This document shows, piece after piece, positions 6,633 to 29,615 of a stretch of 31,814 nt of DNA. A program made the translations under genes and the position numbers. The notes under the pieces were generated by a model, which was given only the letters and a program-made list of their open reading frames with translations, ran no database searches and was not told where the DNA came from. Location: UHGV virus genome UHGV-0219172; one strand, written 5' to 3'. Numbering within the stretch: position 1 is the stretch's first letter; every line of letters starts with the position of its first letter. The stretch is from a virus.

Positions 6633-6735
6633 TGATTTAATGAAATTTCGGAGTCATAAATATTGTGTATTTAACTAGATGATTGCAATATAAGTGCTTA
6701 TTATTTATGCGATTATAGCCATAACGGAGCTGAGT

Positions 6736-7665
6736 ATGAGTGTTGCAAGGCATCATCATTTTTTATCCCAATGTTATTTGAAAGGGTTTACAAGTAATGG
6801 GGGGAAAAAATCAAAATTAACTGTAATAGATTTAAAGGAGCGCAAAACCTTTGAGAGTAATACTCGCAATGTCGGGGGGGTTAGAGATTTCAACCGATTA
6901 GAATTGGATGGAGTTGACCCAAACTATCTCGAGAGTTCTCTTGCAGAGTTTGAAGGCAGTGTAGCTACTCATTTAAGAAAACTTGAGGAGGGGGGCGAGT
7001 TTTCAGGCGAAACCAAAGATGTTATTCTGGAGTTTATTTCCTTATTGGCAATACGTACGCCTGCTCAGCGAGAACATTTATCATCTCCATTGAAACAAAT
7101 AGCAAAGTTTATCATGAAATCCTCAGTTAGTTCGGCTGAGCGTTGGGACGATTGCAAATTAGCTTATGAGAAAGAAATGGGTGAGTCTTTGCCATATGAT
7201 CTCGCTTACGAAAAAATTAAAAATTTTGTGGATGGGGATAATTTCGAAATCAATGTAATCAGAGAGTTCATGATAGATATGGAAATGAAATGTGTACCTG
7301 TTATCACCAAGTTGTTGCATCAACGCAACTGGTCACTTATGACCATATCTGATGGGCAAGGGTCATTTATAACTTCAGATAACCCAGTTTGCTTAATGTG
7401 GACTAATCCTGAATTAGCACGAGGCCCTTATTCCCCCGGGTTTGGTGTAAAAGACACTTTAGTTTTGTTCCCAGTATCAAAAAACCTTCTTTTGGCGGGC
7501 GAGTTTGATGGTCATGAGGGTGTATTCAGTTGTAATGAGGAGCAGGCTGCGGTCTTCAATACTTCAGTCATTCGGCATACCGCAGAAAGAATATTTTCAT
7601 CTAATGATAATTTCAAATTTTTAGACTCATCTAAAAAAATGAAGCAAGGCAAAAGCCTGGTTTGA
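6736..7665 (+). CDS. cargo gene at the A-cos (tin/old) position: DUF4238-like protein, candidate single-gene anti-phage defence
   Basis: ATG 6736 with GGAG SD (6726-6729). The track start at 6694 is GTG. N-terminus HHFLSQCYLKGF and internal ITSDNPV resemble recalled DUF4238 signatures. Visibly AT-rich relative to the flanking phage genes. Confidence 0.55.
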   Translation: MSVARHHHFLSQCYLKGFTSNGGKKSKLTVIDLKERKTFESNTRNVGGVRDFNRLELDGVDPNYLESSLAEFEGSVATHLRKLEEGGEFSGETKDVILEFISLLAIRTPAQREHLSSPLKQIAKFIMKSSVSSAERWDDCKLAYEKEMGESLPYDLAYEKIKNFVDGDNFEINVIREFMIDMEMKCVPVITKLLHQRNWSLMTISDGQGSFITSDNPVCLMWTNPELARGPYSPGFGVKDTLVLFPVSKNLLLAGEFDGHEGVFSCNEEQAAVFNTSVIRHTAERIFSSNDNFKFLDSSKKMKQGKSLV

Positions 7666-17453: not shown

Positions 17454-18197
17454 TTATCTGGTTAAATAAGTGAGCTCACTCTCTTTAGGTATTAGCTGAG
17501 TGTCTCCTCCCCATTCGTTCATGATGTTTTTTCTCGCATTCCAGTATTCTTGGTAAGTATCTTGATGAACAGTGTAGATACTTGCTAAAAGCCAGTGTTG
17601 ATACTTAAGAGTCGTGTATTGGTATTCTTCTATTATCGGTAAAATGAATAAGTTTTTTTGCTTTAGTGAGATTAAATATTCTTTTGTTTGTTTGGTGGTT
17701 CTGTCATTGTTTAAGATTCTTTCAATCTTAAATGAAAAGCCGTGCATGTTTATATTTCTTTGGAGGTGCATGAATGATGATATTGATGGGGCGATCATGT
17801 TTTGATGCGTCAGGATGTTTCTTAAATCCTCCATTAATTTTATTACTGGATTATTTCGGAATTCATGATTGATGAATGCCTCTGATTTGATTTTAATGTC
17901 GGCAATATTTAATGCTTTTGTTTTAAGTAGGTTGCGCGTTGAATCTCTAAATGATAATGCTGAAGATATATAATTGAAAAGGTGTCTTGATATGTTTAAA
18001 TGTTCTTTTTTAAATTTGTCTCTGTTAAATGAATGACGGGAAACAATGTCAGGGGAGTTGAATTTGCTTAATTCATGTTGGACAACTTCGTAATTGGCAA
18101 TATGCATATGTCCAAGTAAATTGGTGTCGGAGATTTTTAAATACTCTTGGTGGGCGATGGTGTCTTTTTGATTTTCCCAGATTTGATATTTATCCAT
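17454..18197 (-). CDS. cargo gene at the S-V (P2 orf30) position: 247-aa protein of unknown family with two RNxxxH motifs, candidate HEPN-like defence/abortive-infection protein
   Basis: Antisense to the late operon, with its own SD (AAGGAA upstream of the minus-strand ATG). Visibly AT-rich. Motifs LRNILTH (R126 to H131) and QRNINMH (R147 to H152) fit the HEPN Rx4-6H pattern. I recognise no family. Confidence 0.5.
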   Translation of the reverse strand: MDKYQIWENQKDTIAHQEYLKISDTNLLGHMHIANYEVVQHELSKFNSPDIVSRHSFNRDKFKKEHLNISRHLFNYISSALSFRDSTRNLLKTKALNIADIKIKSEAFINHEFRNNPVIKLMEDLRNILTHQNMIAPSISSFMHLQRNINMHGFSFKIERILNNDRTTKQTKEYLISLKQKNLFILPIIEEYQYTTLKYQHWLLASIYTVHQDTYQEYWNARKNIMNEWGGDTQLIPKESELTYLTR

Positions 18198-23166: not shown

Positions 23167-23456
23167 GTTGTATGATATCTGGAGTGAGCTAACGTATCTA
23201 TGGCACAGAGTAAAACTTAATCTGACAGTCTGCTCTGTACCAAAAGCGGAACTTGCTTACATCGTGCTATGTTAGTTTGCTGGGAGCAGGTCATTATCTA
23301 CGTGATTGCTATTTTATAACTTGGATAAAATGAGGGATGAACATAATATCGAGACAGTGATTGCAGAGTTAGTCATTATAGGCGGGCATCAGTTCATGCC
23401 GGATCTCTAATGCAATTATCAGGAAAATATGGGACGTTTTATCAATCAGAGGAAAT

Positions 23457-24683
23457 ATGTTACAGTTCAGCTTTGTATCAAATGACGTTGTTATGACTTA
23501 CGACGGTGACAGCGGAGAACAAATAATTTGGGTTTGGGAGAGTTTAAATAAATTTCAAACAGTATGCATTTCACGAATTTTTAACTTTCAACTCCAGGAC
23601 TTGAGAAACCCACCGTCAACCGTTCAGGATTTTAATGATTACGAATATTCCTTTAATTTTGGCACGCTTAATAATGAATACATAACAGTTCCGGGACGGA
23701 TTCTAAGCATTAATCGAGATGTCCTTATACATAAGTCCATCAAGCTTGAAAGGAAAGTATTTGCGTCAGAACGCAACGTCTCCATTTTTGGTCGGCTTTC
23801 AAAACTACTCGATCACACTAATCCCATCATCATCGGAGGAGATAAGCCGGAAGCTATACCAAAAAGCGTATTCCAGGAGTTGCAAAGTAAATTCCACAAC
23901 ACAGGGGAACTGGATCGCTATGCTAATGCAAGGGTTCACGCTATTCTCGCAGGTTATCTTGATGGTATGAAAGATGCTCGCGAACGGTATGAACATTACC
24001 TAAACAGAAAAACAGTGATCAGAAAAACCGACAAACTGGATTTAGAAGTTTTAAATAAGCTCGAAATTGAGAAATATACACTCATAAGAGACATTATCCA
24101 GGATGCGTTGAATAACAAAACTAACTTGTCTGAAGATGACTGGCAGAGCCTGATGATACCCTTCATCACATTACTTTTTCCAAAATATATCAAGGTCCTC
24201 GAGAAGGTTAAAATTTTCGACTATTACTCTAATCCTTCGGCTAAAACAAATCGGTTTATAGACATTGCACTGGTGGATGCAAACGGCAACCTTGATATCA
24301 TCGAAGTCAAAAAGCCGTTTGATGATAAGATCCTTCGCAAGACGCCCTATCGCGATAACTATATTCCTACATCAGAACTTAGCGGCGGTATTATGCAGGC
24401 TGAAAAGTATATTTTTCATTTATCTAAATGGGGTGTTAAGGGTGAAAAAGAGCTTACGAATGCCTACAAGAATTCTCTGCCAGCGGGAATGTGTATTCGT
24501 ATATCTAACCCAAAAGCCATCATCATTGTCGGACGCGATCAGATAGCGAACGGTAACATGACCGACGGTCAGTTGCTTGATTTTGAGATAATCAAACGTA
24601 AGTACGCCAACATGATAGACATATTGACGTACGACGACCTGTTGCGTCGACTTAATAATACGATTGAAGCATTGAAAGGTTGA
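23457..24683 (+). CDS. cargo gene at the G-FI (Z/fun) position: 408-aa protein with a C-terminal PD-(D/E)xK nuclease-like core, possibly Shedu (DUF4263)-like; candidate anti-phage defence
   Basis: ATG 23457 with GAGG SD. Visibly AT-rich, flanked by about 290 bp of non-coding DNA on each side. C-terminal region FIDIALVDANGNLDIIEVKKP ... QAEKY gives D269/D280, E283-x-K285 and Q314...Y318, a restriction-endonuclease-fold pattern. Confidence 0.5.
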   Translation: MLQFSFVSNDVVMTYDGDSGEQIIWVWESLNKFQTVCISRIFNFQLQDLRNPPSTVQDFNDYEYSFNFGTLNNEYITVPGRILSINRDVLIHKSIKLERKVFASERNVSIFGRLSKLLDHTNPIIIGGDKPEAIPKSVFQELQSKFHNTGELDRYANARVHAILAGYLDGMKDARERYEHYLNRKTVIRKTDKLDLEVLNKLEIEKYTLIRDIIQDALNNKTNLSEDDWQSLMIPFITLLFPKYIKVLEKVKIFDYYSNPSAKTNRFIDIALVDANGNLDIIEVKKPFDDKILRKTPYRDNYIPTSELSGGIMQAEKYIFHLSKWGVKGEKELTNAYKNSLPAGMCIRISNPKAIIIVGRDQIANGNMTDGQLLDFEIIKRKYANMIDILTYDDLLRRLNNTIEALKG

Positions 24684-24752
24684 ATGCCCATGAGGTTCAC
24701 ACCCACAACGGGGAGCAGGTCACTTCCTCTTGTTTGATTGACATACCATAAC

Positions 24753-24776
24753 GTCTGCTTTTGGCTCAAAGCAGAC
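24753..24776 (+). terminator. hairpin, candidate terminator of the cargo gene
   Basis: 9-bp stem GTCTGCTTT / AAAGCAGAC with a 6-nt loop, about 70 bp after the stop, followed by T-rich sequence. Confidence 0.45.
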
Positions 24777-24844
24777 TGTCTGATTTGATAGCTTTTGGGC
24801 TATGTAAATTGTCAGTTGAAAAATGAGTGAGTACAAATCAGGAC

Positions 24845-24872
24845 GGGCGGGCGAGTTGCCCGCCTTTTCTTT
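24845..24872 (+). terminator. rho-independent terminator upstream of the FI late promoter region
   Basis: GC stem GGCGGGC (24846-24852) and GCCCGCC (24858-24864), loop GAGTT, then TTTTCTTT. Confidence 0.6.
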
Positions 24873-24969
24873 AATCTGTTGTTTCATCCACTGACCAGTC
24901 AGGTCAAATAGCGTCTTATGCACTGCCCAACAGAAAATAGTTGCACCCATTAACCACGGAGTTAAACGG

Positions 24970-26172: not shown

Positions 26173-26691
26173 ATGGCAATGCCGCGCAAACTCAAGTTAA
26201 TGAACGTCTTTCTGAACGGCTACAGCTATCAGGGCGTCGCAAAGTCCGTCACGCTGCCAAAACTGACCCGTAAGCTCGAAAACTATCGCGGTGCGGGGAT
26301 GAACGGCAGCGCACCGGTAGACCTCGGCCTTGATGACGATGCGCTGTCAATGGAGTGGTCGCTCGGGGGCTTCCCGGATTCGGTTATCTGGGAGCTTTAC
26401 GCCGCAACCGGTGTGGATGCCGTGCCGATTCGTTTTGCTGGCTCTTACCAGCGCGACGATACCGGCGAAACGGTGGCCGTCGAAGTGGTCATGCGTGGAC
26501 GTCAGAAAGAAATCGACACCGGAGAGGGTAAACAGGGAGAAGACACCGAGTCGAAAATCTCCGTGGTCTGCACCTATTTCCGGCTGACGATGGACGGTAA
26601 GGAGCTGGTCGAAATCGACACCATCAACATGATTGAGAAGGTGAACGGCGTCGACCGGCTGGAGCAACACCGCCGTAATATCGGCCTGTGA
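26173..26691 (+). CDS. FII: tail tube protein
   Basis: 172-aa ORF following the sheath gene. Confidence 0.9.
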   Translation: MAMPRKLKLMNVFLNGYSYQGVAKSVTLPKLTRKLENYRGAGMNGSAPVDLGLDDDALSMEWSLGGFPDSVIWELYAATGVDAVPIRFAGSYQRDDTGETVAVEVVMRGRQKEIDTGEGKQGEDTESKISVVCTYFRLTMDGKELVEIDTINMIEKVNGVDRLEQHRRNIGL

Positions 26692-26747: not shown

Positions 26748-27023
26748 ATGGACAAAGAAAATGTCATTACCCTGGAAAATCCGGTCAAACGTGGTGAGCA
26801 GGTTATCGAACAGGTCACGCTGATGAAACCCAGTGCCGGGACGCTGCGCGGTGTCAGTCTGGCTGCGGTCGCAAACTCCGAAGTCGATGCACTGATTAAA
26901 GTGCTGCCGCGCATGACGGCACCGATGCTGACCGAGCAGGAAGTTGCCGCGTTGGAACTGCCTGACCTTGTGGCGCTGGCCGGTAAGGTGGTCGGTTTTT
27001 TGTCGCCGAACTCGGTGCAGTAA
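26748..27023 (+). CDS. E: tail assembly chaperone E (in-frame product)
   Basis: 91-aa ORF immediately upstream of the tape measure gene, ending just after the slippery heptamer. Confidence 0.85.
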   Translation: MDKENVITLENPVKRGEQVIEQVTLMKPSAGTLRGVSLAAVANSEVDALIKVLPRMTAPMLTEQEVAALELPDLVALAGKVVGFLSPNSVQ

Positions 27024-27175
27024 CGTTTCCTAAAAATCTGTCGGTCGATGACCTGATGGCGGATGTGGCAGTGATATTTCACTGGCCGCCATCAGAACTG
27101 TATCCCATGAGTCTGACCGAACTCATCACATGGCGCGAAAAGGCGCTCCGGCGAAGCGGAAACACGAATGAGTAA
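26748..27175 (+). CDS. E': tail assembly chaperone E+E' (-1 programmed ribosomal frameshift product)
   Basis: Slippery T TTT TTG at 26996-27002. The -1 frame stays open to a TAA at 27173-27175 and encodes ...FPKNLSVDDLMADVAVIFHWPPSELYPMSLTELITWREKALRRSGNTNE, overlapping the T start. Confidence 0.75.
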
Positions 27176-29615
27176 CAATGTAAAATTACAGGTATTGCTC
27201 AGGGCTGTTGACCAGGCATCCCGCCCGTTTAAATCCATCCGCACAGCGAGCAAATCGCTGTCGGGGGATATCCGGGAAACACAAAAATCACTGCGCGAGC
27301 TGAACGGTCAGGCATCCCGTATTGAGGGATTTCGCAAGACCAGTGCACAGCTCGCCGTGACTGGTCAGGAACTGAAAAAAGCCAGACAGGAAGCCGCAGC
27401 TCTGGCTGTCCAGTTTAAAAATACTGAACGACCGACAAATGCACAGGCAAAGGCAATGGAAGCCGCGCGTAAAAATGCGTCTGAGTTACAGGCGAAATAT
27501 AACAGCCTGAGATTGTCGGTACAGCGCCAGCGTCAGGAATTGAGTCAGGCGGGTATTAATACCCGTAATCTGGCGCATGATGAACGAGGGCTGAAAAACC
27601 GTATCAGTGAAACCACCGCACAGCTTAACCGTCAGCGCGACGCGCTGGCGCGTGTCAGTGCGCAACAGGCAAAACTTAATGCAGTAAAACAGCGTTATCA
27701 GGCCGGAAAGGAACTGGCTGGAAATATGGCCTCGGTAGGCGCTGCCGGTGTGGGGATTGCGGCGGCGGGAACGATGGCCGGAGTTAAGCTGCTGATGCCC
27801 GGTTATGAGTTTGCGCAGAAAAACTCAGAATTGCAGGCCGTGCTGGGTGTGGCAAAAGACTCCGCCGAAATGACCGCACTCCGCAAGCAGGCGCGCCAGC
27901 TCGGCGACAATACCGCAGCCTCGGCGGATGATGCAGCCGGTGCACAGATTATCATTGCGAAAGCCGGCGGGGATGCTGCGGCTATTCAGGCGGCAACGCC
28001 GGTAACGCTGAATATGGCACTGGCGAATCAGCGGTCGATGGAAGAAAACGCGCAACTGTTGCTGGGGACTAAGGTATCCTTTCAACTGTCAAATGATGAT
28101 GTCAGCCATGTGGGCGACGTGTTGTCGGCAAAGATGAATAAGTCGGCGGCTGATTTTCAGGGACTCAGTGATGCACTGACTTACCTCGGTCCGGTTGCGA
28201 GGACGGCAGGTGTAAGTCTTGAACAGGCTGCAGCCATGACAGGTGTGCTGCATGACAATAACATCAGGGGGTCAATGGCGGGTACGGGTAGTAGTGCCGT
28301 TGTCACCCGATTACAGGCTCCGACAGGGAAAGCATGGGAAGCACTAAAAGAGCTTGGCGTTAAAACCTCGGACAAAAAGGGAAATATGCGTCCGTTGTTC
28401 ACCATTCTGAAAGAGATTCAGGTCAGCTTTGATAAACACAAGCTGGGAACGTCTCAGAAGGGGGAATACCTTAAAACCATTTTTGGTGAGGAAGCCCTGA
28501 AATCAGCGAACGTTTTACTGGCAGCGGCAGCAAGCGGAAAACTGGATAAGCTGACCGCCACGCTGAAAGCATCGGACGGTAAAACGGAAGAGCTGGTTAA
28601 AATCATGCAGGATAACCTCGGTGGTGACTTTAAGGAGTTTCAGTCCGCTTATGAGGCGGTGGGGACTGACCTGTTTGACCAGCAGGAAGGCACACTGCGT
28701 AAGCTCACTCAGACGGCCACAAAGTATGTGTTAAAACTCGACGGCTGGATCCAGAAAAACAAATCACTGGCGTCAACCATCGGCCTCATTGCCGGTGGCG
28801 CGCTGGCGCTTATTGGCATCATCGGTGCAATTGGTCTTGCAGCCTGGCCGGTTATCACCGGCATCAATGCCATCATCGCGGCAGCAGGCGCAATGGGTGC
28901 AATCTTCACGACGGTTGGTAGTGCCGTTATGACGGCCATCGGGGCGATTAGCTGGCCGGTTGTGGCCGTGGTGGCTGCAATTGTCGCCGGGGCGTTGCTT
29001 ATCCGTAAATACTGGGAGCCTGTCAGCGCATTCTTTGGCGGTGTGGTGGAAGGGCTGAAAGCGGCATTTGCGCCGGTGGGAGAACTGTTCACGCCACTGA
29101 AGCCGGTGTTTGACTGGCTGGGCGAAAAGTTACAGGCCGCGTGGCAGTGGTTTAAAAACCTGATTGCCCCGGTTAAAGCCACCCAGGACACCCTGAACCG
29201 TTGCCGTGACACGGGCGTCATGTTCGGGCAGGCACTGGCTGACGCACTGATGCTGCCGCTTAATGCGTTCAACAAACTGCGCAGTGGTATTGACTGGGTG
29301 CTGGAAAAACTCGGTGTTATCAACAAAGAGTCAGACACACTTGACCAGACCGCCGCAAGGACTAATGCCGCCACGTATGGCACCGGTGGTTATATTCCGG
29401 CGACCAGCTCTTATGCAGGCTATCAGGCTTACCAGCCGGTCACGGCACCGGCTGGCCGCTCTTATGTGGACCAGAGTAAAAACGAATATCACATCAACCT
29501 GACGGGCGGTACTGCGCAGGGGACACAGCTCGACCGCCAGTTACAGGATGCACTCGAAAAATACGAGCGGGATAAACGTGCGCGCGCCCGTGCCAGCATG
29601 ATGCATGACGGTTAA
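27168..29615 (+). CDS. T: tail tape measure protein
   Basis: 815-aa ORF with an Ala/Gln-rich coiled-coil N-terminal half and hydrophobic Gly/Ala-rich segments. Confidence 0.9.
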   Translation: MSNNVKLQVLLRAVDQASRPFKSIRTASKSLSGDIRETQKSLRELNGQASRIEGFRKTSAQLAVTGQELKKARQEAAALAVQFKNTERPTNAQAKAMEAARKNASELQAKYNSLRLSVQRQRQELSQAGINTRNLAHDERGLKNRISETTAQLNRQRDALARVSAQQAKLNAVKQRYQAGKELAGNMASVGAAGVGIAAAGTMAGVKLLMPGYEFAQKNSELQAVLGVAKDSAEMTALRKQARQLGDNTAASADDAAGAQIIIAKAGGDAAAIQAATPVTLNMALANQRSMEENAQLLLGTKVSFQLSNDDVSHVGDVLSAKMNKSAADFQGLSDALTYLGPVARTAGVSLEQAAAMTGVLHDNNIRGSMAGTGSSAVVTRLQAPTGKAWEALKELGVKTSDKKGNMRPLFTILKEIQVSFDKHKLGTSQKGEYLKTIFGEEALKSANVLLAAAASGKLDKLTATLKASDGKTEELVKIMQDNLGGDFKEFQSAYEAVGTDLFDQQEGTLRKLTQTATKYVLKLDGWIQKNKSLASTIGLIAGGALALIGIIGAIGLAAWPVITGINAIIAAAGAMGAIFTTVGSAVMTAIGAISWPVVAVVAAIVAGALLIRKYWEPVSAFFGGVVEGLKAAFAPVGELFTPLKPVFDWLGEKLQAAWQWFKNLIAPVKATQDTLNRCRDTGVMFGQALADALMLPLNAFNKLRSGIDWVLEKLGVINKESDTLDQTAARTNAATYGTGGYIPATSSYAGYQAYQPVTAPAGRSYVDQSKNEYHINLTGGTAQGTQLDRQLQDALEKYERDKRARARASMMHDG

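Follow-up and report, generated by a model that had tools for sequence, protein, structure and literature searches.

A probable P2-type E/E+E' programmed -1 frameshift site between the tail tube and tape measure genes of a P2-like prophage

Does the short interval that separates the tail tube and tape measure genes of this virus encode a single tail assembly protein, or two proteins that share one start codon? The window analysed here is the whole 31,814-nucleotide stretch UHGV-0219172, read on one strand, and it carries the heptamer T TTT TTG near the end of the reading frame that corresponds to gene E of phage P2. The preliminary description of this DNA, made from its letters, had taken the heptamer for the conserved tail-chaperone -1 frameshift. 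That reading is upheld by P2 orthology, the annotation of the P2 record, the L-V junction of the deposited P2 protein and the secondary literature, all of which agree. On comparative sequence grounds the site is very probably the E/E+E' programmed -1 ribosomal frameshift of a P2-type prophage, by which two tail assembly chaperones would be made from one start codon.

Judged by gene content and identity, the window is a P2-like prophage (Peduovirus, P2-type) with approximately 97% identity to phage P2. Its first 25 kb matched bacteriophage P2 at 96.8% identity with 78% of the length covered, and the E-E'-T region did so at 97.6% DNA identity. The genes follow the P2 prophage map, with the integrase, the early genes, Q-P-O-N-M-L, the lysis and tail genes, H-G, FI-FII-E-T-U-D and ogr in that order. 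Pfam calls around the site identified the tail sheath (FI), tail tube (FII), tape measure (T), GpU, GpD and Ogr proteins, and the calls on the neighbouring ORFs give E the position it has in the P2 annotation, with FII (tail tube) before it and T (tape measure) after it in the FI-FII-E-T-U-D operon. The features on which the argument turns are as follows.

26173..26691, + strand: FII, tail tube protein, upstream neighbour of E (Pfam PF04985 Phage_tube, E = 2e-60; matches P2 FII)
26748..27023, + strand: gene E, tail assembly chaperone, 91 aa, the zero-frame product (ORF and translation; Pfam PF10109 Phage_TAC_7, E = 2e-12; matches the P2 E CDS)
26986..26990, + strand: SD-like AGGTG, candidate upstream element six nt before the heptamer, its synonymous sites conserved in some 85 distinct relatives
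26987..27023, + strand: overlap of 37 nt in which the E and -1 (E') frames are both open, bounded by the -1 stop TAA at 26984-26986 and the E stop at 27021-27023
26996..27002, + strand: slippery heptamer T TTT TTG, with UUU (Phe) as the predicted P-site codon and UUG (Leu) as the predicted A-site codon; invariant in close relatives
27002..27175, + strand: E' extension, 57 codons of the -1 frame plus TAA, predicted to be reachable only by frameshift (Pfam PF06528 Phage_P2_GpE, E = 2e-22)
27168..29615, + strand: gene T, tail tape measure protein, 815 aa (Pfam PF10145, E = 6e-43; TIGR01760, E = 5e-98; matches the P2 T CDS), its start overlapping the E' stop (ATGAGTAA)

Gene E begins with ATG at 26748 and ends with TAA at 27021-27023; in an exact-sequence look-up the same protein was found on 448 contigs, where it is named 'phage tail assembly protein'. 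The zero-frame codons around the site are GGT TTT TTG, which sets the heptamer in the X XXY YYZ phase within E, and here the coordinates first proposed for it were exact. Its distance from the E stop had been misjudged, since not four but six sense codons intervene (TCG CCG AAC TCG GTG CAG, 27003-27020). Because the -1 frame is closed upstream by the TAA at 26984-26986, a productive shift would be confined to the 37-nt overlap at 26987-27023, and the heptamer falls inside it. Downstream, the proposed run of 57 open -1-frame codons to the TAA at 27173-27175 was exact, as was the proposal that the end of E' overlaps the start of T: the ATG of T (27168-27170) and the E' stop share an 8-nt overlap, ATGAGTAA. 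The predicted E+E' fusion is 142 aa long, with PF10109 at residues 7-85 and PF06528 at residues 104-139. No NCBIfam model matched E or E+E', and no relative of E+E' was found among solved structures.

A heptamer of this kind might be nothing but an accident of coding Gly-Phe-Leu, with the -1 ORF left unexpressed. TTTTTTG is indeed common in the window, where the two strands together hold 18 copies and shuffling gives an expectation of 9.8; a count of 18 was reached in 1 of 100 shuffles, a mild enrichment. Rarity of the heptamer was therefore rejected as evidence, the motif alone proves nothing, and the case rests on context and comparison. What sets the site above chance is the combination of its phase, its position in the 37-nt overlap and between the tube and tape measure genes, the PF06528 match on the -1 ORF, its conservation and its codon choice.

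For the comparison we assembled two sets of related loci. The close relatives comprised 80 IMG/VR loci and P2 (81 in total). The diverged set comprised eight phage loci, which represent five other Peduoviridae genera (Eganvirus, Duonihilunusvirus, Aptresvirus, Elveevirus and Gegavirus) and an unclassified Klebsiella phage, together with 80 loci from different bacterial genomes, nearly all of them Enterobacterales; with the window this amounts to 89 loci. An in-phase T TTT TTN was present in all 169 related loci examined. Among the close relatives the in-phase heptamer T TTT TTG was invariant (81/81), and the diverged set plus window carried T TTT TTN in phase in 89/89 loci, of which 78 had TTG, nine TTA and two TTC. 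Codon choice at and around the heptamer was equally restricted. Codon -1 encodes G, N, S, L, P or T, yet its third base was T in 85/85 distinct contexts. In the same 85 contexts the heptamer Phe was always TTT, compared with 61% TTT elsewhere in these genes, and the A-site Leu was never CTN, compared with a 72% share of CTG among the Leu codons elsewhere.

These patterns indicate that the heptamer is under selection at the nucleotide level, and they make the comparative data a clean example of such selection acting on a slippery site. An accident of coding does not fit a motif that is kept in all related loci despite variable flanking residues and with an extreme synonymous-codon skew, nor an E' that belongs to a Pfam family and has a coding signature. 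The comparative data effectively refute this explanation, to which we attach a negligible probability. One further sequence, a second E-region copy in L016 (IMGVR_UViG_2695420821_000010, from 1508 onward) with an E' of 30 codons, was discarded; it diverges abruptly at an N and represents a scaffold or assembly join, not a biological variant.

The way in which the programmed shift would proceed can be read from P2. At the homologous position the P2 RefSeq record NC_001895 lists E and a two-piece CDS for E+E' with the remark 'shares amino terminus with gpE; -1 frameshift; essential tail protein', and it marks a misc_feature 'site of -1 translational frameshift' one base past the homologous heptamer. 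By exact-sequence look-up, the P2 product NP_046780.1 (UniProt O64312, 'Tail assembly protein E'') has the junction GFL-VAELG, as expected if both tRNAs slip in tandem on T TTT TTG and the G is then read again. The variant P2 join that would reread the base after the heptamer (GFL-F-AELG) was absent from the protein collection and was rejected; the G-reread GFL-V form is the one deposited as NP_046780.1. The programmed -1 frameshift of P2 E/E+E' in the FETUD tail operon was reportedly described by Christie, Temple, Bartlett and Goodwin in 2002 (J Bacteriol 184:6522). In the passages of later papers that summarise Christie et al. 2002, P2 shifts by -1 at TTTTTTG to give a 91-aa E and a 142-aa E+E', no RNA structure being reported there (PMC3091744), and the E/E' overlap measures 37 nt (PMC3931495). 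These two summaries and the RefSeq remark present E+E' as frameshift-made and essential, and a third paper, where it touches on P2, puts the frameshift efficiency at two- to threefold that of lambda G-T (PMC5009743).

The window and P2 have in common the heptamer T TTT TTG, the 37-nt overlap, the products of 91 and 142 aa, an E' end that overlaps the T start, and the flanking order FI-FII-E-E'-T-U-D. The E' proteins are identical (57/57), and the E proteins differ at two residues, D2 and E10 in the window as against N2 and D10 in P2. E ends with TAA in the window and with TGA in P2; both stops are found among the close relatives. This G-to-A change (window 27022) is silent in both frames, replacing stop by stop in one and GTG by GTA (Val) in the other, and it puts GUA in place of the GUG that had at one time been proposed as a start for E', so that no E'-frame start codon occurs before 27056. 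The mechanism is unaffected by the differences between window and P2. On its sequence-level defining features, all of which are present, the window locus is a member of the P2 E/E+E' system, and the feature as such has been described before (Christie et al. 2002; Xu et al. 2004).

We envisage that most ribosomes would read E to its stop and release the 91-aa gpE tail assembly chaperone. A minority would slip back by one base on T TTT TTG with tRNA-Phe (UUU) in the P site and tRNA-Leu (UUG) in the A site. Both tRNAs would re-pair with UUU UUU in a simultaneous slippage, which fits the deposited P2 product, and decoding would resume in the -1 frame at GTC (GUC) 27002 and continue for 57 codons. 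The resulting 142-aa E+E' would contain the junction GFL-VAELG, a tandem ribosomal slip giving the junction peptide GFLVAELGAVTFPK, and its translation would end at the TAA at 27173-27175, where the tape measure gene T has already begun.

The fusion could also arise one step earlier, if RNA polymerase added one U on the T6 run and so made some mRNAs in which E and E' stand in one frame, with the junction GFF-VAELG. The site is a homopolymer run, six T's are needed by both models, and a single E. coli record, QTN08932.1, encodes an in-frame 142-aa GFF-VAELG protein, so this junction does exist as sequence. Bacterial RNA polymerase, however, as a rule slips efficiently only on runs of some 7-9 or more, and the T6 run is short. 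Selection for slippage should favour longer runs, and none of the 89 loci has a T7 run, the seventh base being G, A or C. Moreover, the synonymous-site conservation of the SD-like AGGTG points to a signal at the level of the ribosome, and the P2 product in the database has the L-V junction. We consider transcriptional slippage quite unlikely and retain ribosomal frameshifting as the preferred reading. As to QTN08932.1 itself, which lies outside the window, its in-frame 142-aa E+E' with the GFF-VAELG junction implies a T7 run in the underlying DNA, and would reflect either a fusion fixed in nature or a sequencing error in the homopolymer.

Ribosomal frameshifting predicts a translated E' frame from the heptamer onward, and we examined E' for a coding signature. 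E' was 57 or 58 codons long in 86 of the 89 loci, its stop overlapped the T start in the loci checked for it, and the other two frames over E' contained stops in all lineages. Substitutions in E' concentrate at third codon positions, with counts by position of 0/0/4 relative to P2 and 6/4/15 relative to Klebsiella phage Kp4852-2. From 26987 to 27055 the E' frame has no ATG, GTG or TTG, the first start codon lying at 27056. The 11 codons between the E stop and this first ATG (E' codons 8-18) had column entropies of 0.67/0.47/1.23 by codon position, which is again a coding signature. These codons would be translatable only after a frameshift, and their signature argues against E' as a separate 39-aa gene; it suggests coding constraint on E' upstream of its first ATG.

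Such a gene is nevertheless what the databases contain. PGAP annotates E' in E. coli genomes as a 39-aa 'GpE family phage tail protein' that would start independently at ATG 27056 and involve no fusion, and the 39-aa sequence is found on about 1000 contigs. Codon 19 of E' is moreover ATG or GTG in 57/57 sequences, and the Pfam PF06528 model begins at that codon. Yet an SD-like motif 4-16 nt upstream of codon 19 was found in 0/57 sequences. In every locus the 18 preceding codons are open in the -1 frame, and they vary with a third-position bias around the conserved residues V.E.G..F...L.VDDL. Nucleotide-level selection on the in-phase heptamer would be needless for an independent gene, and the P2 record and the literature, in the P2 passages cited above (PMC3091744, PMC3931495), give E+E' as essential and frameshift-made. 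A separate E' gene is thereby rendered highly improbable, and the frameshifted extension of E remains the reading that we adopt.

This has a bearing on annotation. Of 5,426 complete E. coli genomes, 1,583 carry the 551-bp segment with the E/E' site. In the ten RefSeq E. coli records that matched best (the best 10 of 1,583 genomes) PGAP splits the locus into a 'phage tail assembly protein' and the 39-aa 'GpE family phage tail protein', with no fusion, and by exact-sequence look-up the fused E+E' protein of the window was absent from the protein collection. The locus adds a further P2-like prophage to those with this textbook P2 E/E+E' recoding site and is of small value as a discovery. Its practical value lies in annotation, given a segment that occurs in this many genomes and a fusion that is unannotated in the ten best-matching records.

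The only point that may be new is the conserved SD-like element AGGTG upstream of the heptamer. Codon -4 was NAG in 84/85 distinct contexts, while the encoded residue varied between K, Q and E; the ratio of AAG to AAA at this codon was 68:1, compared with 24:76 elsewhere in the same E genes. Codon -3 was GTG in 81/88 contexts (94% of its Val codons), compared with a background of 38%. Third-position entropies were 0.09 at codon -4 and 0.46 at codon -3, as against 1.2-1.8 at neighbouring codons. Since the -1 frame is non-coding at AGGTG, dual coding cannot explain this conservation.

SD-like stimulators of frameshifting have been validated experimentally and given an operational definition, with a range of 6-17 nt (Sharma et al. 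2014, PMC4066793). Elements that fit this definition occur in 87 of the 89 loci, window included, a count that comes from phylogenetically related loci and from a 6-nt spacing at the short limit of the validated range. U_UU.U_UU.G lies outside the motifs found to be efficient in E. coli reporter assays (PMC4066793); the heptamer alone may consequently be weak, and a stimulator would help to explain the reported efficiency. AGGTG could be a functional SD-like upstream stimulator of the dnaX/IS911 type, which would act by pairing with the anti-SD of 16S rRNA, raising a weak U UUU UUG to the two- to threefold excess over lambda reported for P2 and doing so without a downstream structure. We advance this role tentatively, as a serious possibility that we would not yet call probable.

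Like the dnaX and IS911/IS3-type signals, the site has an X XXY YYZ heptamer after an SD-like element (here AGGTG) at a spacing within 6-17 nt. Unlike them, it has its spacing at the short end of that range and a heptamer that is U-rich, not A AAA AAG, and it is accompanied by no supported downstream hairpin or pseudoknot. The open-access literature in which we looked for an SD-like element in the P2 family contained no mention of one; the original description of 2002 stands outside that scope and may already have it. AGGTG is in any case a testable candidate for an SD-like stimulator, and the system is one that has been described as having no stimulatory elements.

Downstream of the heptamer, neither folding nor an alignment of eight diverged lineages supported a hairpin or pseudoknot at 5-9 nt. 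The 98 nt that follow the heptamer folded with z = -2.7, due to a 10-bp inverted repeat some 50 nt downstream and a 5-bp hairpin (27004-27017) that starts 1 nt after the heptamer; for the segment that spans the slip site (26960-27062) z was -0.5. The inverted repeat is perfect (27053-27062 and 27086-27095, CTGATGGCGG and CCGCCATCAG) and lies within E' over the conserved LMAD...WPPSE motif, and its presence is probably a side effect of conservation at the protein level. A consensus fold of the eight diverged lineages gave a covariation term of +0.39, with compensatory changes in 2 of 26 pairs. Downstream RNA structure was rejected as a stimulator for want of covariation support, in agreement with the P2 summary in PMC3091744, which reports no structure.

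Chaperone frameshifts are not confined to P2. Between E/E' and lambda G/T no sequence similarity was detectable. The slippery sequence of lambda is G GGA AAG, as against T TTT TTG here. Lambda gpG/gpGT and the conserved tail assembly chaperone frameshift are said to have been described by Levin et al. 1993 and by Xu, Hendrix and Duda in 2004, 2013 and 2014. The likeness to lambda and to the chaperone frameshifts of other long-tailed dsDNA phages is one of arrangement, in that two overlapping ORFs lie between the major tail or tube gene and the tape measure gene (PMC5009743). As in lambda, a -1 shift shortly before the first ORF ends would yield a minor, longer product with the same N-terminus and a presumed role in tail length or assembly (PMC5009743). 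The window displays what marks the G/GT type, namely a pair of overlapping ORFs flanked by the tube and tape measure genes, a slippery sequence and a shared N-terminus, and the locus is one instance of the broader tail assembly chaperone frameshift that long-tailed phages conserve (Xu et al. 2004). The present phage differs from lambda in being contractile-tailed, and the efficiency reported for P2 is two- to threefold higher than that of lambda where PMC5009743 treats it. On the model of lambda gpG/gpGT (PMC5009743), E and the E portion of E+E' would bind and coat tape measure protein T. The E' tail, present on the less abundant product, would bring in the tube subunit FII and so let the tail polymerise round T to the right length.

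Three further genes of the prophage were recorded in passing. A 247-aa ORF (17454-18197, - strand) runs on the opposite strand within the tail and baseplate block, near the position of P2 orf30; it had no Pfam or PADLOC match, its sole match being PHROG 12680 (function not known). Between the tail fibre assembly gene G and the sheath gene FI, which is the Z/fun position in P2, lies a gene for a 408-aa Shedu defence protein (23457-24683, + strand, flanks 23167-24969) that matches SduA (PADLOC, E = 4e-218; Pfam SduA_C, E = 3e-33). The GC content of this segment is 0.38-0.45, below the 0.55-0.58 of the tail genes, and the segment shares 99.5% identity with the 'P2-EC31' fragment AJ512677, in which it is annotated as a putative lysogenic conversion protein. 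Directly after the replication gene A, where P2 has tin/old, a 323-aa DUF4238 protein (6694-7665, + strand) matches the PADLOC candidate defence family 'DUF4238-Pers' (E = 2e-219), and a match at this position gives the prophage a second defence cargo locus.
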